Source: a virus
Taxonomy: Duplodnaviria > Heunggongvirae > Uroviricota > Caudoviricetes
IMG/VR virus record: IMGVR_UViG_2609460219_000007
DNA length: 44,629 nt
Direction: 5' to 3' (one strand)
Part shown: positions 8,160 to 27,663 of the stretch, one piece after another
Numbering within the stretch: position 1 is the stretch's first letter
How the letters are laid out: every line of letters starts with the position of its first letter
Made by a program: the position numbers and the translations under genes
The notes under the pieces: generated by a model
Databases searched by the model: none
Told to the model about the DNA's origin: nothing
The model's input: the letters and a program-made list of their open reading frames with translations, nothing else

Positions 8160-8199
8160 GTGTTAATTTCTGGTCATGAGGTAATTTTCAGGAGGGCTT

Positions 8200-8859: not shown

Positions 8860-10194
8860 TTATGATACCGATAAAAACTTTTTTGTAATTTCTGCTGCCG
8901 TTTTCTCCATGCTGGGATATACAGTGCTTTCGGATATATTAAGCTGTGCCAGCTCTTCCAGAATTTTATTTTTGTTCGCTATCTCCACTCTGTTAAGAGG
9001 AAACTCAGCATCTGTTTCCGGTAAAATGGGATCAAGTCCGAACAGAAGAAAAGCTCCTGCCTGAGATTGTATGCGTTCATTATTTATTTTTGCCTTAAGG
9101 AAAACAACTTTCTTTAAGTCATCAGGGATTATTCTGTTTCTGAAATATGATTTTTCATTCTGTATAAGGTCTGCAAGTTTATCAGTGAGTTCAGGTAACT
9201 CCATACTACCTTTTCTGGCATCAATGGAAGACAATTTTTCCAACTCTTCGTAAGATAAAAGTGATAAGTTTGCTATACAGCTCACTGTGTCTGAGTCGAA
9301 ATATTTAATTTTCTTTCTGTTTGTTGAAAACGCAATCACCTGTCCGTTTTCATCGGGGTTCGAACAGCAAGCAAAATATAATGCTATCAGTGGGTTAGAT
9401 GTAATGTCTAAGAGTCTTGTAGGCAAGCCATAATGCTGCATGCGGACAAGTTTATCAATCGTAAATTTATCCTCCTTAAATTCATTTGGTCTTGCGCTGA
9501 GTATTTCACGTACTAAATCAGATTCTGAAGCAAGATGCCTGTACGTCCCGTTTTGATTTTTTCTGTAAAGAGAGGGGACAAGCTCATATGAGCTTTTAGA
9601 GTGTCCACGATAGAAGGTAATGAGACCATCACGAAAGTTTTTCTTAATGAAATTAAGATAATCTATAATATTCTCGACTACTGGGTATGTTTGTTTTTTT
9701 AATTTGATTGTACCTTTCAGATGGCTATTTTTTTTGTTTAAACCAAGTAATTCCAGAACAATATTCAAATCCTTATTTTTTACTGCCCAATGTGTACGAC
9801 TTAACCCGAAAGATCCTAGTCCTAGGGTTTCTTTATATAATGTCGTTTGGGGATTCGTTATTTCTCCAAAATCATGATTAATCTTGAAAGAAAATAAAAT
9901 ATCGCCACCATCTTTACGTAAATTTCTTATTTCCCCAAGCCTGATCCTGATGTACTTGTTTGTATCATATTCATCATCTTTTGTATAAATTTCGGTCATG
10001 AACAACACCGGTAGCTTGGCGAGTACTCTTAAGGTATCGGGTCTTATTGGTGTTAATTTTCTGTAAATATTGCTTGGGGTGCCTTCCAGCATGCGGGACA
10101 TCGAGAAGCTTTCCTTGCCTTCTTTAAGCTCAGGGTCCATACACGGCCAGCGGTCAAAAACGTCCGGTTCTCCGGCCATGATTAAGCTAAACAT
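8860..10194 (-). CDS. FRG-domain protein with uncharacterised N-terminal domain (candidate defence/abortive-infection gene)
   Basis: 444-aa ORF with strong RBS (AGGAGA, 5-nt spacer, ATG); central motifs ...ITFYRGHSKSSYELVPSLYR... and ...MQHYGLPTRLLDITSNPLIALYFAC... match the FRG domain family as I recall it; the gene is visibly AT-rich relative to its flanks. Confidence 0.75.
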   Translation of the reverse strand: MFSLIMAGEPDVFDRWPCMDPELKEGKESFSMSRMLEGTPSNIYRKLTPIRPDTLRVLAKLPVLFMTEIYTKDDEYDTNKYIRIRLGEIRNLRKDGGDILFSFKINHDFGEITNPQTTLYKETLGLGSFGLSRTHWAVKNKDLNIVLELLGLNKKNSHLKGTIKLKKQTYPVVENIIDYLNFIKKNFRDGLITFYRGHSKSSYELVPSLYRKNQNGTYRHLASESDLVREILSARPNEFKEDKFTIDKLVRMQHYGLPTRLLDITSNPLIALYFACCSNPDENGQVIAFSTNRKKIKYFDSDTVSCIANLSLLSYEELEKLSSIDARKGSMELPELTDKLADLIQNEKSYFRNRIIPDDLKKVVFLKAKINNERIQSQAGAFLLFGLDPILPETDAEFPLNRVEIANKNKILEELAQLNISESTVYPSMEKTAAEITKKFLSVS

Positions 10195-13915: not shown

Positions 13916-14201
13916 TAAATGGGGCAATGGTAATGTTGAATCTCATCCCGGGACTCATGTCTGTTAACTTATTATTTAGCTGGTGACTTGGTTATTTGCC
14001 TGATGTTTAAAATGTTTTCTTCCAGTACAATGTCCCTAAACACAATGAGTCTGCTTATTATATTATTAGCAGAGCTATTACGGCCAAAGTACAGCATAAG
14101 CTTTTAAAGCCAATCATCCAGTCATCAAGACAGACGGGGTTATTCATAAAAACTCTCCATGTGTGATCCGATGGGGCCTGAAATTAAAGCTTTAATATAG
14201 C

Positions 14202-18651: not shown

Positions 18652-18882
18652 ATGAAAAAAATAATAGTTTTTTTTAACTCTGAACCAGCAATGGTAGTGC
18701 CAGTGATGACCGGAGTTAACACCATCATGCGTGAATATCCAAATGGCGAAACAACACACCTCACTGTAATGGCTGCAGGGTTTCCATCTCTGACCGGAGA
18801 TCATAAAGTCATTTATGTAGCAGCGGATCGACATGTAACTTCAGAAGAAATTCTGGAAGCAGCAATGAGACTCTTGAATTGA
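18652..18882 (+). CDS. Hypothetical protein
   Basis: 76-aa ORF from MKKIIVFFNSEPAMVVPVMTG...; weak RBS. Confidence 0.4.
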   Translation: MKKIIVFFNSEPAMVVPVMTGVNTIMREYPNGETTHLTVMAAGFPSLTGDHKVIYVAADRHVTSEEILEAAMRLLN

Positions 18883-19730: not shown

Positions 19731-20067
19731 TCACCATAACTGCTAACCATTCTGACCATTTCACAAGTGACAGAGTCAATATCGTATTCTGTCACTGTAA
19801 GGCTAATACAGTACTGCAATTCAACTACAGCAATGCCTCGTATTTAGGTGAATTTACAATATCGTCCAGTTCGGATGCAGGCTGCATTTCTGAAGATAAG
19901 GCATTTCGGTTCGCGTATTTTCCCCTCATGCTCGTCAGTCCTGCGCGTAGTAAGAAACAGGACACTCACACTAATTTGTGTGGGCATGCTGTGATGTCCT
20001 TCTGAATTATCCCCATGCCATTATGTAAAGCTCTGTTTCAGATGCTCGTCACGGTTGTCAGGCTGTC

Positions 20068-20290
20068 GGGTCCTCCCAGTGGGGGTCCCTGCCACGGGGC
20101 GGGAGCGTCGCGGAAAAAGGCTAGTTTTTGCATTTCCATGGCGGCGGCAGCATGTTTGGTAATTTATTGATAATTAAAAGTTATTTCTCTTTTTACCTGT
20201 ACAATATTTTTTTCTCCCTGTCATTAGACCAGTTTACAATTAATTGAAATATATAAATAAACATGATTTTCACCTGCCAGATGGAGTTGC
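20068..20290. repeat. cos-like packaging region of the prophage (copy 1 of a three-member repeat family)
   Basis: Block GGGTCCTCCC...CTGCCACGGGGCGGGAGCGTCGCGGAAAAAGGCTAGTTTTTGCATTT... directly upstream of terS; near-identical blocks recur at 28657 and 31194. Confidence 0.6.
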
Positions 20291-20292
20291 TT

Positions 20293-20820
20293 ATGTCAAA
20301 TGTGAGCGGGATCGGTGATGCTTATTACTGGAGTGTTTTTAAAATCGCTGAGGCCTTTGGGCTTCACCGGGACACAGTAAAAAAACGGCTTCTCGCGGCC
20401 AACACTCCTGTGGCTGCGACTGTCAGGGGGAACCCCGTTTACGCCCTGCAGCATGTCGGGCCAGCCCTGTTTAGTGTGAAGCATGAGGCAGCAGACTCTG
20501 TTCATGATCCATCCCGTATGGAGCCGAAAGAGAGAAAGGACTGGTACCAGTCTGAAAATGAAAGGATCAAGCTGGAAAAGGAGCAGCGAAAACTCATCCC
20601 CGTTGATGAAGTAGTCATCGTCTATTCGTCCATGAGAAAGGCTGTCGTCCAGGTTCTGGAGACAATTCCGGATGTTCTTGAACGCGATTGCGCCCTGACT
20701 CCTCAGGCCGTCGGCGTTGTACAGCAGGCAATTGATGACCTGCGATACACTCTTCAGGAAAAATCCTACGAGGCTTGTGCTGCTGAATTAATTCCTGATG
20801 AGGAAGGAGAGAGTCTCTAG
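20293..20820 (+). CDS. Terminase small subunit (Nu1-like)
   Basis: 175-aa product from MSNVSGIGDAYYW...; GGAG RBS; immediately followed by terL; homologous to a second copy at 31419-31904 (shared ...ME..RK.WYQSE.ER.K.E.E...LIP.D.V...). Confidence 0.8.
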   Translation: MSNVSGIGDAYYWSVFKIAEAFGLHRDTVKKRLLAANTPVAATVRGNPVYALQHVGPALFSVKHEAADSVHDPSRMEPKERKDWYQSENERIKLEKEQRKLIPVDEVVIVYSSMRKAVVQVLETIPDVLERDCALTPQAVGVVQQAIDDLRYTLQEKSYEACAAELIPDEEGESL

Positions 20821-20828
20821 GAGGAATA

Positions 20829-21821
20829 ATGGGTTTTTCATCAGCCCGAAATTTGGGAAGGGACATATCGGCAGGATTTTCCCCACCACGTCGCATGCCG
20901 ATTTCGGAGGCTGTTAAAAAATTCATGCGTGTTCCCAAGGGGGCTGGTAACTCGGTGCCATGGGATCCTGAACTGACACCCTACATCATTGAGCCCATGA
21001 ACTGCCTGGCATCGCGTGAATACGATGCGGTGATTTTTGTTGGTCCTGCGCGAACAGGGAAGACCATTGGTCTGATCGATGGATGGATTGTCTATACCAT
21101 CGTTTGCGATCCTTCGGACATGCTCGTTGTGCAGATGACCGAAGATAAGGCCCGCGAGCATTCTAAAAAGCGCCTCGACAGAACGTTCAGAAGCAGTGCG
21201 GCGGTAAAGAAAAGAATGAGTCCACGTCGTAACGACAATAATGTCCATGATAAGACGTTCAGGGATGGCTCGTTCCTTAAAATTGGTTGGCCCTCGGTCA
21301 ACATTATGTCGTCGTCGGATTACCGGTTTGTCGCCTTAACCGATTACGACCGTTTTCCGGAGAATATCGACAGCGAGGGTGATGGTTTCTCCCTGGCCTC
21401 AAAACGTACCACCACATTTATGTCCGCCGGGATGACTCTGGTGGAGAGCTCGCCGGGACGTGACATCTGCGACAGCAAATGGCGACGTAAGTCGCCTCAT
21501 GAAGCGCCACCGACGACTGGTATTCTTTCCCTTTACAATCGTGGTGACCGCCGCCGCTGGTACTGGTCATGTCCGCACTGCGGTGAATATTTTCAGCCAG
21601 CCATGGATGCCATGACCGGCTACCGTAATGAACCGGATCCCTTTAAAGCCAGTGAGGCGGCGTATCTACTTTGCCCGCACTGCAGCGGCATTATCACTGC
21701 GGAGAAAAAGCGTGAGCTCAATAGTGCAGGAGTCTGGTTGCGTGAAGGTCAGGTCATTGATCGTAACGGCAACGTTTCCGGTGAACCGCGCCGCTCCCGT
21801 ATCGCCAGTTTCTGGATGTAG
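20829..21821 (+). CDS. Terminase large subunit (TerL/gpA-like), N-terminal ATPase portion; reading frame interrupted at 21819
   Basis: 330-aa ORF with Walker A-like VGPARTGKT and a CPHCGEY...CPHCSG zinc-finger region; ends ...RIASFWM* exactly at the left junction of the inserted element; the C-terminal portion resumes at 32564. Confidence 0.8.
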   Translation: MGFSSARNLGRDISAGFSPPRRMPISEAVKKFMRVPKGAGNSVPWDPELTPYIIEPMNCLASREYDAVIFVGPARTGKTIGLIDGWIVYTIVCDPSDMLVVQMTEDKAREHSKKRLDRTFRSSAAVKKRMSPRRNDNNVHDKTFRDGSFLKIGWPSVNIMSSSDYRFVALTDYDRFPENIDSEGDGFSLASKRTTTFMSAGMTLVESSPGRDICDSKWRRKSPHEAPPTTGILSLYNRGDRRRWYWSCPHCGEYFQPAMDAMTGYRNEPDPFKASEAAYLLCPHCSGIITAEKKRELNSAGVWLREGQVIDRNGNVSGEPRRSRIASFWM

Positions 21822-21982
21822 GGTACATTTCTTACCTGTTTTTATGTTCTGGTGTCGTTTTGTAGTCTTTTCAATGAGTTGTGATTTTTTGTGTTTCCTC
21901 TCTTTACTTGATAATGAGTTAGTTTATCGCTTGTTATCGACTTGAAAGGACTACATGACGGACTAAAAAATGAGGGCGATAG

Positions 21983-23156
21983 ATGCCGGTAAAGCCATTA
22001 ACTGTGACTGAAGTTAAGGGAATGAAACCACGTGAAAAGGACTATGCCGTTTATGATGGGTTCGGTTTATTGCTGAATGTGAGTAAAGCTGGTGGGAAAG
22101 TGTGGCGTTTCCGTTATAGCCATCCGATAACGAAGAAACGGCAGACATACACGATAGGGCGTTTTCCTGAATTCTCACTCGCGGAAGCACGGGAAGTACG
22201 TGATGAACTTCGGCGAATGATTGCACGTGGAGTTGATCCAGTGACAGAGAAGAAAAATCGTAAAATTGAGATGTCACTAAAAAATCTACAAACATTTGAA
22301 GCTGTTGCTAATGCATGGATCGCTTTTAAAAAGGGATCGGAATTGCGGAAACCTACGCTGTATAATATCGAATATGAAGTATACAAATATCTTGTTCCTT
22401 TCTTTGGTAAGTACAGCATAGAGAAAATTACAGCGCCAGTAGCTATTAATGCTCTGGATGCCGTATCCGATAAGAATGCGTTGCAAAAAAAANTTAATAT
22501 CAAGATTAAATGAAATTATGAATTACGCTGTAAATTGTGGAGCATTGAAAACGAATCCATTACTTAAGATAAAAACTGCATTCACAGGAAAGAAAAATAA
22601 ATCATTAGCTGCACTACCTGTTGAAAGATTGCCTGAATTTCTGAGTTGGTGGGATAGTGTGCCTCATAAGTATCAAATAGCTCACAATGCACTTTTATTC
22701 CAGATATTGACAATGGTCAGGCCAGGTGAGGCGATTAAAGCAGAGTGGTCCGAGATTGATTTTGATTCTGGCTTGTGGATTATCCCCGCGCATAAAATGA
22801 AATGCCATCGTGAACATGTTGTGCCTCTCTCATCACAGGCTATTAGAATCCTAAGAACAATGCAGGAAATAAAAAGAGGGCGTTATATATTTTTTTCCTC
22901 CAGAACAAAAGATGCTCCTATGGGAAAGAATACTATCAATACCCCAATTGCTGCCAGCAAGTTCAAAGGGATTGTAACGTTACACGGTTTTCGTTCGATG
23001 TGGAGTACGCTTTTAAATGAGGAGGGTTTTAACCCTGATGTTATTGAGGCTGCATTAGCACATAAAAGTGGTGATAAAATAAGAGATATTTATAATAGAA
23101 CTACTTATTTAGAACAACGCAAAATTATGATGCAATNGGGTAGGAGATTTTTTTGA
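21983..23156 (+). CDS. P4-type tyrosine integrase (apparent frameshift at an A-run containing N at 22493)
   Basis: Two overlapping ORFs (21983-22513, 22449-23156) that together read as one integrase: N-terminal arm-binding-type domain, C-terminal catalytic ...HGFRSMWSTLLNE...ALAHKSGDKIRDIYNR...; sits at the left end of the element. Confidence 0.8.
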
Positions 23157-23235
23157 TGAGGCGAGAAAAGGGGTAATTAATAGATCCGGTGGTAAGAAAG
23201 GTTTGAGAATAGTAAATGGTTGAGGAGTTCAGCAA

Positions 23236-23439
23236 ATGAATACCAATGAAGATATTTTATTTACTAAAGACGTAATGAAAATTTTGCGCTATGGGGCAAT
23301 GAGCGCATTCATCAATTTCTGGAAAGATGAAAATAATGGTTTTCCTCAACCGTTCAGAATTGGGCGGCGGCATACCTGGCACCGTAGAGATGTAGAGGCA
23401 TGGTTAGATAAACAACGAGAACAGGCCAATCCCCACTAA
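23236..23439 (+). CDS. AlpA-family transcriptional regulator / excisionase-like
   Basis: 67-aa small HTH protein directly downstream of the integrase (int-alpA arrangement of P4/PICI elements). Confidence 0.7.
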   Translation: MNTNEDILFTKDVMKILRYGAMSAFINFWKDENNGFPQPFRIGRRHTWHRRDVEAWLDKQREQANPH

Positions 23440-23453
23440 TAATATCTTTCATA

Positions 23454-23478
23454 CCCCGCACGCAATGCGGGGTTTTTT
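23454..23478 (+). terminator. Rho-independent terminator after the alpA-like gene
   Basis: CCCCGCA-CGCAA-TGCGGGG hairpin followed by TTTTTT. Confidence 0.7.
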
Positions 23479-23497: not shown

Positions 23498-24079
23498 ATG
23501 AATAAAAATATTGCCGTGACGGGCAAGGGGTACGCTCGTTCAGTAAAAAAATTCTGCGATATTCGTGATCTTGTCGTTCTGCGCTTTGATGGCGTGGATG
23601 TTCGTGTGGTGTATCTGAACGGCGATCCGTGGTTTATTGCAAAGGATGTTTGTGAAGCTCTGGAAATAAGCAACTCACGCGATGCTCTAAAAGCTCTGGA
23701 TGTGGATGAGAAGAATACCGTCGCTTTAAGCTACGGTATTCGCGGAAATCCAAATCATAGCGTCGTTTCTGAATCTGGTTTTTACAAGCTGATCGCCAGA
23801 AGTCGCAAAGCTGTTACTCCTGGCACGTTCGCCCATCGTTTCAGTAACTGGGTATTCAGGAATGTGATACCAGGTATCAGAAAAACGGGGGCTTATGGTA
23901 TCCCGTGGGGGGCATTACAGGATTTTTCCCGCCGTAAAGAGCAATATCAAATAAGTGCCAGCGAGAAGGGGAGGGAGCTACAGGCATGTAAGCGCAAAAA
24001 GCGTGAGCTGGAGGAAGAAGAAAAAAGGCTGATACGTGAATATCAGCCTGAGTTTTACTTTGGTGAGCGTATTCAGTAA
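23498..24079 (+). CDS. Bro-N domain protein (antirepressor-like)
   Basis: 193-aa product; N-terminal ...FDGVDVRVVYLNGDPWFIAKDVCEALEISNSRDALKALDVDEK... is Bro-N-like; C-terminal charged coiled-coil. Confidence 0.65.
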   Translation: MNKNIAVTGKGYARSVKKFCDIRDLVVLRFDGVDVRVVYLNGDPWFIAKDVCEALEISNSRDALKALDVDEKNTVALSYGIRGNPNHSVVSESGFYKLIARSRKAVTPGTFAHRFSNWVFRNVIPGIRKTGAYGIPWGALQDFSRRKEQYQISASEKGRELQACKRKKRELEEEEKRLIREYQPEFYFGERIQ

Positions 24080-24295: not shown

Positions 24296-24703
24296 CTATT
24301 GCATCAACAATGAATGTCTTATCCACATTACGAGGGATGGAATAATTTTTATGTATCCGCCATATGCCCATATAATGGTGCCAAAAACAGTTAGTCCAAC
24401 CCCGAGTACTTCAGCTTTTATTTCCTCTCTGACCTCAACTCGAGCTTTAGCTAAGTTTTCTTCTCGTATCTTTTGTGATTCTTCCGCAGACAATGGCGGG
24501 CCAGTTACGCCACTGCGTGAATTAATTTCAGCTTCGCGATTAGATAATTTTTTTAAAGTTGTGAACTTGATTGTATACAACAATCCAAAAACTGAAATAA
24601 TTGCACCTGAGCTGGCGAATAGATTCATATCATTAAGATATTGGCCGAACNAAAAAGCTTGCTCCACAAAAAACACATAATATGGCAATGGATGTTTTTG
24701 CAC
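24296..24703 (-). CDS. Small two-TM membrane protein (AT-rich cargo gene)
   Basis: ORF with hydrophobic helices (SGAIISVFGLLYTI; VLGVGLTVFGTIIWAYGGYIKII) flanking a charged segment; N at 24651 makes the 5' end uncertain (alternative start MNLFASSG at 24634). Confidence 0.45.
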   Translation of the reverse strand: MQKHPLPYYVFFVEQAFXFGQYLNDMNLFASSGAIISVFGLLYTIKFTTLKKLSNREAEINSRSGVTGPPLSAEESQKIREENLAKARVEVREEIKAEVLGVGLTVFGTIIWAYGGYIKIIPSLVMWIRHSLLMQ

Positions 24704-24771
24704 CGAGTATTTTCAGTAATATTGTTCTAAATCTCTTCATTGTTAATATATCCTATCATAGAAGTAGTAAT

Positions 24772-24966
24772 TCACCCCTTAGGTTCGATACCGCGCCGCT
24801 TTAGTTCGGAGCGCCCTAACTCTTTAAGCCAGTTAGCAAGGCTTACACCATCATTATTAGCCTCGCTATCAAACTGTTCTTTCAGTTCTGGAGCTATACG
24901 CATATGGAAAGGGGGAGCCTTTCCTGTCCCTTTGGGTTTTTTATCGCGTTTAATTATTGTTGACAT
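24772..24966 (-). CDS. Ribbon-helix-helix (CopG/Arc-like) DNA-binding protein
   Basis: 64-aa product ...HMRIAPELKEQFDSEANNDGVSLANWLKELGRSEL... with RHH-like pattern; start abuts a 12-bp inverted repeat. Confidence 0.55.
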   Translation of the reverse strand: MSTIIKRDKKPKGTGKAPPFHMRIAPELKEQFDSEANNDGVSLANWLKELGRSELKRRGIEPKG

Positions 24967-25009: not shown

Positions 25010-25301
25010 CTTAACACGTGTGCATTTAATAACGCAACGCCCCGCAGTGCTGGAACACATGCAGGGCGTCTAACCACCAACGATAGCAACAGTATCGAGG
25101 TAGCTATGTTAAATCATACCACACACCCGCAAGGGCGGGACTCGCACAACCTGAATAAATACATCTGGCGTTTTATCGCCCTGAGCACCGCACAACCGCG
25201 CGTGATTCACATCGAGGCCACCAGCGAACAGGAAGTCCGCCAGCAATCCACGGTTGGCTGCGTGATGGTATTCACTGCCTGTATTCGTCAGGGGGCGCAG
25301 C

Positions 25302-25502
25302 ATGCACAATTATGAAGCGCACTTACCTGTAGTTCTTAATGTGCCGTCAGATTATACGGGACGCGTTTTGATATTTCTCGATAAAGGGAAAGTGAAATCA
25401 CAATGCCGCCTTAGAAATAATGAGGTTGTTGGTTCTCTGGCTTTTTTTTCTGAGGCCTGTATTCGTGCCGGAATAAAACTTGAATCACTGACAGGAAAAT
25501 AA
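25302..25502 (+). CDS. Hypothetical protein
   Basis: 66-aa ORF upstream of the primase gene. Confidence 0.35.
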   Translation: MHNYEAHLPVVLNVPSDYTGRVLIFLDKGKVKSQCRLRNNEVVGSLAFFSEACIRAGIKLESLTGK

Positions 25503-25507
25503 AAACC

Positions 25508-25807
25508 ATGAAAAAGAAAAATTCTGGCTTTACTGCCAGTGACTTCTCTCGGCCTGAAATCCGCCCCGGCGATATTTTCCGTGATAACTACGGCGGTACG
25601 GTAACGATTAAAGGCGTGGCAGAACGGCGCATCACCTACCGNCGTGAAGGTTACGAATATGATTGCGTGATGCCTGTTTATCAATTCCGGCGTGATTTTT
25701 CCCTGGTACATGCTGCGCCCCGCAGTAAACCCACCAGCAGGGAAAAAGTGCGGGGAAATATCCAGAAAATGAAAAGCATGATTAACGCATTCAGGGGCAA
25801 AAAATGA
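25508..25807 (+). CDS. Hypothetical protein
   Basis: 99-aa ORF overlapping the primase start (ATGA); one N. Confidence 0.45.
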   Translation: MKKKNSGFTASDFSRPEIRPGDIFRDNYGGTVTIKGVAERRITYXREGYEYDCVMPVYQFRRDFSLVHAAPRSKPTSREKVRGNIQKMKSMINAFRGKK

Positions 25808-27663
25808 AGCTTGCACCGAACTTAAAAAAACAGCCACGCGACAGACTGACAGAGGTAATCATCTTTGCGGGTAGTGATGCGTGGAGCCATGCGAAAGAGT
25901 GGCAGGAGTNGGCAGGTAAACATATTGCTGCCGACAACGTGCCGCCTGTTGTGCTGGCTGATGAGCAACTGAAAAACATCACCGACTACCGGATCATTGA
26001 TGATGGTCGTGAATGTGTACGCATTTATTGCGCAGGCCATATCACAGAGCGCAGTCTTACGCAGATCGCCACCTTACTTGCAGTTGCTGGTGTGCAAAAT
26101 GCACGTTGTTGGCGGAGCTTTGCAGATAAGGAATCGCCGGAGGACTGGTCGCCGCGCCTTGCCGGGCTGAAAGCTGAATATGAACGCGGAGAAAGTCTGG
26201 TTATGAGCAGCAGGGAATTAGCAGAAAGTAAAAAAGTAGTTGAACTGCCTGTAAAGAAAAAAGAGCGGATAAAAGACGATAAGGCTTCATCACTGGCGCT
26301 TAACCAGATGGGAGCAAGTCAACGCGGTGAAGTCCTCCTGGCACGTTATGGCGGTGAACTGGCGATTCATGCCGACTCTGACACTGTTCACCATTACAAC
26401 GGCGTTGTATGGGAGCCAGTACAGGATAAAGAGTTACAGCGTGCTATGGCGCAGATTTTCATTGATGCGGAGATCAGCTATTCGCAGAACGCCATTAAAT
26501 CGGCGGTCGATACCATGAAGTTAAGCTTGCCTGTGATGGGGAATACAGCCCGTAACCTGATTGGATTCAGTAACGGGGTATTTGATACCCGGACAGGTAA
26601 TTTTCGGAAGCATAACAAAAATGACTGGTTGTTAATTGCCAGTGAATTACCGTTCAGNCCACCAGCAGAGGGGGAAACGCTGGCAACACATGCGCCGAAT
26701 TTCTGGAAGTGGTTGCGCCGTTCGGTGGCTGAGAATGACCGCAAGGCAGATCGTGTACTGGCGGCATTATTCATGGTGCTGGCGAACCGGTACGACTGGC
26801 AGTTATTCATTGAGGTAACAGGGCCGGGGGGAAGCGGTAAAAGCGTGATGGCGGAGATTTGCACCATGCTGGCGGGTAAGGCTAATACAGTATCAGCAAG
26901 CATGAAGGCGCTGGAAGACGCAAGGGAACGCGCGTTAGTGGTTGGCTTTTCGCTGATTATCATGCCGGATATGACCCGCTACGCTGGTGATGGGGCAGGG
27001 ATTAAGGCCATTACAGGCGGTGACAAGGTGGCAATTGACCCGAAACACAAAGCCCCCTATTCAACGCGTATTCCGGCAGTAGTGCTGGCGGTTAACAATA
27101 ACGCCATGTCATTCAGTGATCGCAGCGGGGGGATCTCACGTCGTCGGGTGATATTCAATTTTTCGGAAGTTGTACCGGAGAACGAACGCGATTCGATGCT
27201 GGCGGAAAAAATAGAAGGTGAGTTGGCGGTAGTGATTCGTCATCTGCTTACACGATTTGCTGATCAGGACGAAGCCAGACGCCTGTTATATGAGCAGCAG
27301 AAATCTGAAGAAGCACTGGCGATAAAGCGAGAGGGGGATTCGCTGGTGGACTTCTGCGGCTATCTCATGGCATCGGTAATGTGTGATGGCCTGTTAGTGG
27401 GTAATGCTGAAATTGTGCCATTCAGNCCACGCAGGTATCTCTATCATGCCTATCTGGCTTATATGAGGGCACATGGGTTTGGTAAACCTGTAACACTGAC
27501 GCGCTTCGGTAAAGATATGCCGGGGGCAATGGCGGAATATGGCAGGGAGTATATGAAACGGAAAACGAAGCACGGTTTGCGTTCAAACGTGACCCTGACG
27601 GAGGAATCAGAAGACTGGATGCCATCATGTGTATCGGTCACTAATGACGATAGCAAAAATTAA
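25804..27663 (+). CDS. Primase/replicative helicase (P4 alpha-like, P-loop NTPase)
   Basis: 619-aa product with Walker A GPGGSGKS and a Walker B-like hydrophobic stretch; followed by an iteron array. Confidence 0.8.
   Translation: MKLAPNLKKQPRDRLTEVIIFAGSDAWSHAKEWQEXAGKHIAADNVPPVVLADEQLKNITDYRIIDDGRECVRIYCAGHITERSLTQIATLLAVAGVQNARCWRSFADKESPEDWSPRLAGLKAEYERGESLVMSSRELAESKKVVELPVKKKERIKDDKASSLALNQMGASQRGEVLLARYGGELAIHADSDTVHHYNGVVWEPVQDKELQRAMAQIFIDAEISYSQNAIKSAVDTMKLSLPVMGNTARNLIGFSNGVFDTRTGNFRKHNKNDWLLIASELPFXPPAEGETLATHAPNFWKWLRRSVAENDRKADRVLAALFMVLANRYDWQLFIEVTGPGGSGKSVMAEICTMLAGKANTVSASMKALEDARERALVVGFSLIIMPDMTRYAGDGAGIKAITGGDKVAIDPKHKAPYSTRIPAVVLAVNNNAMSFSDRSGGISRRRVIFNFSEVVPENERDSMLAEKIEGELAVVIRHLLTRFADQDEARRLLYEQQKSEEALAIKREGDSLVDFCGYLMASVMCDGLLVGNAEIVPFXPRRYLYHAYLAYMRAHGFGKPVTLTRFGKDMPGAMAEYGREYMKRKTKHGLRSNVTLTEESEDWMPSCVSVTNDDSKN

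Follow-up and report, generated by a model that had tools for sequence, protein, structure and literature searches.

Why the large terminase gene (terL) of a prophage should stop at its domain boundary and resume 10.7 kb downstream, with the same seven bases at both breaks, is the question raised by the locus described here. The window (the whole stretch of 44,629 nucleotides that was analysed) is IMG/VR virus record IMGVR_UViG_2609460219_000007 (Duplodnaviria; Heunggongvirae; Uroviricota; Caudoviricetes). The host element is a Qin-type, lambda-like lambdoid prophage of Escherichia coli, and the 10.7-kb insert in its terL is, judged by its gene make-up, a phage satellite of the phage-inducible chromosomal island (PICI) type, referred to below as the terL satellite. 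The two copies of the heptamer CTGGATG at the ends of the insert are very probably the attL and attR crossover cores left by integration of this satellite into the terL of its helper prophage. Coordinates refer to the window and features are on the + strand unless otherwise given.

The heptamer copies are located at 21812–21818 (attL core; third base of a Phe codon, then Trp and Met codons) and 32560–32566 (attR core). The left junction reads GCC AGT TTC TGG ATG TAG (ASFWM and a stop) and closes the open reading frame (ORF) 20829–21821. The right junction reads TCC TGG ATG GAA GGG CCA, and the ORF 32564–33676 opens at the ATG within the core (MEGPAAAYQTW...). An earlier note on this DNA had placed the 7-bp repeat at these positions and in equal codon phase on both sides, and both junctions and the flanking ORFs agree with it. 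The terL 5′ part (20829–21821, 330 codons) carries the GpA ATPase domain and is annotated in RefSeq as 'terminase large subunit, missing C-terminus'; the 3′ part (32567–33676) carries the GpA endonuclease domain and is annotated as 'terminase gpA endonuclease subunit, missing N-terminus'.

The uninterrupted gene was rebuilt in silico, and the junction was represented by 400 nt left of the core, one copy of the core and 400 nt right of the core (800 nt). This junction was 100% identical to uninterrupted annotated phage terminase large subunit genes in many E. coli genomes, and an uninterrupted homolog was present in 1839 of the 5426 complete E. coli genomes. The rebuilt ORF had 2100 nt (699 aa), the length of the intact annotated terL in NZ_CP013662, from which it differed at two nucleotides and one amino acid (R608S), none of them near the junction. 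The insertion is therefore precise, with no indel, and joining across the core restores terL in frame, as had been claimed. The alignment to intact homologs, which the earlier note had proposed as the check, showed that no residue of TerL was lost or gained.

In the rebuilt TerL, the Pfam domains GpA_ATPase and GpA_nuclease covered residues 40–303 and 325–643, respectively. The insertion follows residue 330, at about position 6 of the GpA_nuclease profile, which is the boundary of the ATPase and nuclease domains, and the attB corresponds to the Phe-Trp-Met codons 328–330 of a GpA-family terL. The TAG formed by the first three bases of the satellite ends the ATPase half directly after the core, and no replacement sequence for terL is brought by the insertion. 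Because the TAG and the insert separate the ATPase domain from the nuclease domain, the helper has no full-length terminase while the satellite is integrated. The parallel to lambda gpA drawn in the earlier note was roughly right, with 175 identical positions and the insertion site aligning at gpA residue ~328 (..HIWT..); lambda, however, lacks the Met codon and hence the core.

The + strand of the window has 20 copies of the bare heptamer (~2.7 expected), which makes the repeat weak evidence alone. The repeat carries weight because it is positioned exactly at both breakpoints, not because such a 7-mer is rare: the homology breakpoints relative to intact terL coincide exactly with the heptamer. 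The identity between attL and attR ends directly beside the 7 bp (t/c before, t/g after), and matches farther out are scattered (TTnCTGGATGnAnGG). Under a random-insertion model built from the window, the probability of a junction identity block of at least 7 bp was P = 5.4e-4. The identity is thus confined to an overlap-sized core at the breakpoints, and it was kept across independent events.

These events were seen in the recurrence of the element. The int-terL junction was found in at least 83 complete E. coli genomes and the satellite ends in 90; the carriers make up ~1.5–1.7% of complete E. coli genomes and include the O121:H19 Shiga-toxin lineage. Recurrence was followed in a set of 48 IMG/VR and metagenome loci whose integrases are at least 93% identical. 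Integration is site-specific: in all 48 loci, attL was at the same Ser-Phe-Trp-Met codons. The terL alleles concerned number at least eight, and their flanks have many differences, synonymous as well as non-synonymous; the junction was invariably CTGGATG or TTGGATG (YTGGATG). Where both ends were available, they carried the same core variant (TTGGATG at both in some), except in the O121-type loci L005 and L111. The TGG-ATG part encodes Trp-Met, both single-codon amino acids, and the variable first base is the Phe wobble position. Such a target would not be able to drift silently, and for this reason one integrase could follow many terL alleles. One off-target copy (L106; IMGVR_UViG_2737471855_000016, 1100–1200) is not in a phage but at a chromosomal site, where it follows a LysR-type regulator gene; its junction ..CACTTT/TTGGATG/TAGGG (slashes enclose the core) keeps the core, and attR is absent from the contig.

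In two further loci (L114 and L123), the first satellite base after the attL core is G and not T (TTGGATGgagggta), and the attL/attR identity extends to 12 bp. With this G no immediate TAG is formed, and translation of the truncated TerL would continue into satellite sequence.

The genes expected of an integrating element are found at the left end of the satellite. An intact tyrosine integrase gene (21983–23223) lies 165 nt from attL and encodes a 412-aa P4-type protein with arm-binding, SAM-like and catalytic domains (Pfam, PHROG integrase, RefSeq), the Phage_integrase domain covering residues 235–374; N's inserted at 22493 and 23137 make the gene look frameshifted in the window. It is followed by the gene of a small, 67-aa AlpA-like helix-turn-helix protein (23236–23439), a presumed excisionase/activator that matched phrog_66 'excisionase and transcriptional regulator' (E 9e-7) and had no Pfam match. 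The left arm (P′ arm of attP, 21819–21982) has a promoter-like site at 21942–21971 and a repeat in common with the right arm (P arm, 32189–32559). Candidate arm-type repeats in the left arm are TTTATCGCTT at 21923–21932 and then GTTATCGA at 21933–21940; counted from the first base of the core, TTTATCGCTT stands at −98 in the right arm (32462–32471) and at +111 in the left arm, and it is doubled in P′.

The earlier note had read the junctions as products of site-specific recombination. Integration by a tyrosine recombinase is supported because the core is common to attP and attB, is conserved or covarying over independent events in at least eight terL alleles and is kept at the secondary site, and an intact int stands near attL. 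In the lambda Int/att system, the 7-bp overlap region lies within a 15-bp core. The terL satellite resembles it in pairing an arm-binding tyrosine recombinase with an excision factor gene and in an identity block of exactly 7 bp, the size of the overlap within which strands are exchanged. It differs in that the identity is 7 bp instead of 15 bp and in that its arm sites are only candidates (TTTATCGCTT).

On this basis, a P4-type integrase would have recombined the satellite attP (..ACTTCTTC/CTGGATG/TAGGGTAC..) with the attB in terL. The satellite lies between the helper terS and portal genes, its key genes are co-oriented with the late operon (+ strand), and no terminator-like structure was found between the stop of the truncated terL and int. 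Upon induction, Int and AlpA might be expressed from late transcription or from the satellite's own promoter and would recombine attL with attR within the 7-bp overlap, giving a circle with attP (..CTTCTTC/CTGGATG/TAGGGTA..). The junctions expected are ..AGTTTCTGGATGGAAGGG.. (..GCCAGTTTCTGGATGGAAGGGCC..) for the terL attB and ..CTTCTTCCTGGATGTAGGG.. (..TACTTCTTCCTGGATGTAGGGTAC..) for the satellite attP. Excision would leave an intact terL, to be used by helper and satellite alike. No TerL, portal or tail genes were found in the 10.7-kb insert by annotation and Pfam. With cos, a TerS homolog and a protease/capsid fusion but no TerL, portal or tail of its own, the satellite needs the helper terL. 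We infer that the element excises, that excision is timed and that the satellite benefits from it.

An arrangement of this kind, the helper-embedded PICI (HE-PICI), was first described in 2023 by Tommasini, Mageeney and Williams (PMC10111431), the founder being Eco567.11capE (11capE) of E. coli NRG857c. Mapping of a further 491 HE-PICI elements gave 14 integration sites, which lie in lambda-cognate late genes, and the integrases of these elements form a single clade (search cutoff 400 bits). For 11capE, induction, helper replication and then precise excision of the satellite were shown experimentally (PMC10111431). The terL satellite is an HE-PICI by configuration, and its kind is thus already known. 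Like 11capE, it is a satellite of ~11 kb within a late gene of a lambdoid helper prophage, co-oriented with it, and it has the same gene order (int-alpA, Bro zone, Icd-DUF4222-primase-SSB, cos and captured late genes), in which the four zones of Gram-negative PICIs (Int/AlpA; Bro; replication with primase and single-stranded DNA-binding protein, SSB; late) are recognised. A short att identity block, an attP without replacement sequence and disruption of a late gene are likewise shared with HE-PICIs. Identity to 11capE was 91% for the primase, 98% for a hypothetical protein, 77% for SSB and 76% for Icd. The PICI cos is placed after ssb in PMC10111431, the same position as the first cos-like segment of the terL satellite.

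The integration modules differ. The 11capE integrase was 25% identical to that of the terL satellite (87 bits), below the 400-bit cutoff of the published clade, and AlpA of the terL satellite gave no BLAST hit to that of 11capE. In the alignment of the two integrases, the motifs MVRPGE, LHGFRS and ALAH..IYNR are readable, from which an R..HxxR..H..Y catalytic set is predicted. The target differs as well, the terL satellite being inserted where the nuclease domain of a GpA-family TerL begins, and the satellite carries a TerS homolog, which 11capE lacks according to PMC10111431. The published gene-A sites are all in Terminase_1 genes, at positions 132 and 245/246 (PMC10111431), and all 116 terminase labels in the attL/attR files of that study are Terminase_1. 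Among the entries listed in these files, neither 'GpA' nor the terL junction string was present, and the GpA terL site appears not to be among the 14 integration sites listed. In the literature library searched, no other paper describing a GpA terL integration site was found; the site and the integrase lineage appear undescribed.

The doubled HE-PICI motif tgTGTATTGCantgTGTATTGCa flanks the attP centre, at ~81 bp on its upstream side and 132 bp on its downstream side (PMC10111431). The TTTATCGCTT copies of the terL satellite are ~209 bp apart, compared with ~213 bp between the published motif copies; the sequence differs and the crossover centre is shifted by ~15 bp.

Several observations weigh against the att-core reading of the heptamers and the excision expected from it. 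No full-length attP match was obtained in IMG/VR (exact 40-mer and degenerate 23-mer), in metagenome contigs (24-mer) or in the 5426 complete E. coli genomes (217-nt attP), and no free satellite was found in the IMG/VR contigs, the metagenome contigs or the same 5426 genomes; with no attP junction in these collections, excision of the terL satellite was unobserved. The motif tgTGTATTGCantgTGTATTGCa had no match in the window with up to three mismatches allowed, and because the integrases are only 25% identical, carrying over the behaviour of 11capE is an extrapolation. The positions of cleavage within or around the 7 bp are not readable from the sequence. In the O121 lineage (L005, E. coli O121 RM8352, 14100–14130 and 24300–24330; L111), the junctions are offset by 1 nt: attL reads ..CAGTTTC/TTGGATG/TAGGG (+1 nt) and attR reads ..CTTCTTC/TGGATG/GAAGG (−1 nt). 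Recombination in TGGATG would here shift the terL frame by +1, and the gene would be restored only if the exchange took place in the 4-bp TTCT, so not every copy can restore terL by a TGGATG crossover. The O121-type copy has the appearance of an out-of-register recombination between a T-type attP and a C-type attB. It is also degraded, with insertion sequence (IS) insertions and internal stops, it has no satellite TerS gene, and it is located in a degraded prophage.

Such observations lend some room to a fossil, an insertion that was once site-specific and is now fixed, the repeats being relics, terL permanently broken and the prophage defective. The lack of any attP or excised form in the collections searched and the clear degradation of some carriers, such as the O121 copy with its IS insertions, internal stops and offset junctions, are what this would lead to, and Qin-type prophages are frequently defective. 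It is nevertheless unlikely for the window copy, in which removal of the inserted N's shows int, alpA, the primase gene and the capsid fusion to be intact and both cores are identical. The presence of the same satellite (integrases at least 93% identical) in at least eight terL alleles and at an off-target site requires recent mobility, and an empty site with 100% identical flanks exists.

A split that is tolerated, with the ATPase half and the nuclease half (started from the core ATG) forming a working terminase as two polypeptides, is very improbable. The cut at the domain boundary and the in-frame ATG that the core gives to the 3′ half would suit it, but no Shine-Dalgarno sequence was seen on direct reading before the ATG at 32564, and satellite genes and terminator-like sites separate the 3′ half from the late promoter, ~10.7 kb away. 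To our knowledge, no naturally split GpA-type terminase exists.

Short direct repeats around an insert are also the signature of transposition, and a target-site duplication made by a transposase-type insertion was considered and rejected, its probability being negligible: the 10.7 kb encode no transposase, the element ends are not inverted repeats, one end carries a tyrosine integrase with an excisionase-like gene, and every independent copy uses YTGGATG with covarying ends, which fits an attP/attB core and not a duplicated random target. A heptamer shared by chance, with the true junctions elsewhere, was rejected as having next to no probability, since, despite the 20 copies on the + strand of the window, the breakpoints fall exactly on it, a block of this length is improbable under the random-insertion model, the block recurs in all copies and the rebuilt junction shows no indel relative to intact homologs.

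Three intermediate relatives (L121, L124 and L126) share the alpA and primase backbone and are likewise found within late regions of phages. The L121 integrase is 76% identical and the element sits at the same site in a 74%-identical terL. The L124 integrase is 55% identical; its ends carry the 11-bp block CGCTGATGATG (8165–8175 and 18780–18790), and joining across this block rebuilds, from the start codon on, a tail gene resembling P2 gpU. The L126 integrase is 52% identical and the element is located in a tail assembly chaperone gene (~9800–9960), with no convincing attR within its locus sequence. Clustered by bit scores alone, the integrases of the terL satellite, L121, L124 and L126 were joined at 401–672 bits, compared with 206–297 bits for integrases at transfer-messenger RNA (tmRNA) and tRNA genes and 74–87 bits for 11capE; alpA co-varied with the integrase among these sister elements. 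From this sequence comparison, late genes of helpers appear to be targeted by a second lineage of integrases.

Outside the embedded cluster, the P4-type integrases of tmRNA/tRNA islands come closest (34–41% identity, 206–297 bits). They have the same architecture (Arm-DNA-bind_3, SAM-like and catalytic domains), and in both groups int is beside attL and reads inward. The relatives differ in being located beside tmRNA or tRNA-Ser/Val/Leu/Arg genes, and P4-type islands normally carry a replacement 3′ end of the target, whereas the terL satellite carries none and breaks its target. No TerL fragment was found beside the 80 closest integrases in species-representative genomes (at most 41% identical; tmRNA/tRNA-associated).

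We tentatively propose, with a little less than even confidence, that the terL satellite and L121, L124 and L126 form a second late-gene-embedding integrase/AlpA lineage that arose from tmRNA/tRNA P4-type integrases and is unrelated to the clade of 2023, so that helper embedding evolved more than once, with cores on sequence that cannot drift and with terL gated. If this is true, the integration module was swapped onto the same PICI replication backbone; the location of the cores on undriftable sequence (Trp-Met codons; in L124, the stop/start overlap TGATGATG) would account for the use of many terL alleles by one integrase; and a satellite in terL, a head-packaging gene absent from the satellite itself, would gate the terminase for helper and satellite. 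Non-degenerate codons do not underlie both defined cores: in L124, the core spans the overlap of a stop and a start codon where gpU begins, and not an internal Met-Met.

Intervening elements such as skin in sigK and prophages in comK bring about regulated gene integrity. The terL satellite would be comparable, as an integrative element that splits a gene to be rebuilt by timed precise excision. It differs in that terL belongs to the helper phage, another mobile element, and that the timing would serve the satellite and not the cell. The concept of intervening elements with regulated gene integrity is cited in PMC10111431.

With the terL satellite, the helper-embedded lifestyle extends beyond the defining integrase clade and the 14 sites, and a GpA-type (lambda-like) large terminase is added as a target. 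In RefSeq, the carriers are at present marked only by a pair of pseudogene fragments of a terminase. This is relevant to the prediction of prophages, as one with such a split terL may still be alive. For satellite biology, the locus offers a testable case of a satellite that would physically hold the packaging enzyme of its helper until excision.

Downstream of the integration module, the satellite continues with a strong terminator-like hairpin after alpA (23453–23473) and a BRO-N domain protein gene (23498–24079; Pfam Bro-N, E 5e-18). A leftward pair on the − strand consists of the genes of a hypothetical protein (24296–24740) and an Arc-like repressor (24772–24966). The replication zone (25106–27663) encodes an Icd-like protein (25106–25315), a hypothetical protein (25302–25502), a DUF4222 protein (25508–25807) and a primase/D5-type helicase (25804–27663), and the SSB gene follows at 28194–28616. 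The first cos-like segment (28657–28893, 237 nt) stands after ssb and is 90% identical to helper positions 20068–20304. A ClpP-like prohead protease/major capsid fusion gene (29246–31160) appears as two ORFs in the window owing to an N at 30229; in the protease part, identity to the corresponding fusion protein of the helper is 56%. The second cos-like segment (31193–31261, 69 nt; 90% identical to helper positions 20067–20135) is upstream of the satellite TerS gene (31362–31904; DUF1441 by Pfam, phrog_141 TerS, RefSeq start ~31419), the product of which is 49% identical to the helper TerS over 75 aa. A conserved hypothetical protein gene (31901–32188, phrog_1561) precedes the right arm. With only the protease/capsid fusion and the TerS homolog, and not a full head and packaging set with TerL and portal, the terL satellite differs from the capsid-forming PICIs (cf-PICIs).

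Two potential cos sites are thus found 2.5 kb apart in one satellite, and the second segment may have been captured together with terS.

In the helper prophage, relBE, hokD, ydfU, a Q antiterminator gene, csp genes and essD/rrrQ/rzpQ are present, and the late genes comprise terS (DUF1441), terL, portal, a protease/capsid fusion and tail genes. The helper terS is at 20293–20820 (Pfam E 1.6e-44; coordinates mapped from the RefSeq annotation). A cos-like region (20067–20304), upstream of and overlapping the terS start, has 90% identity with the two satellite segments and, by its position, would be placed as lambda cos is relative to Nu1.

Over the satellite region, the window and E. coli strain A5, GCF_022493795.1, are nearly identical; divergent stretches or indels occur upstream of ~15025 and just past the primase gene (~27686). 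The window contains 32 N's, which are partly inserted bases. Seven of them were mapped base by base against A5 (22493, 23137, 24651, 25642, 25910, 26658 and 27426), three being inserted and four substituting. Removal of N's restores an intact integrase and an intact protease/capsid fusion; the frameshifts in int and in the protease/capsid gene were therefore rejected as real and are artefacts of inserted N's.

In the early region of the helper, a 444-aa ORF with an FRG domain (8860–10194, − strand) is located in a low-GC patch (35–39%) and may be a moron or an accessory gene.

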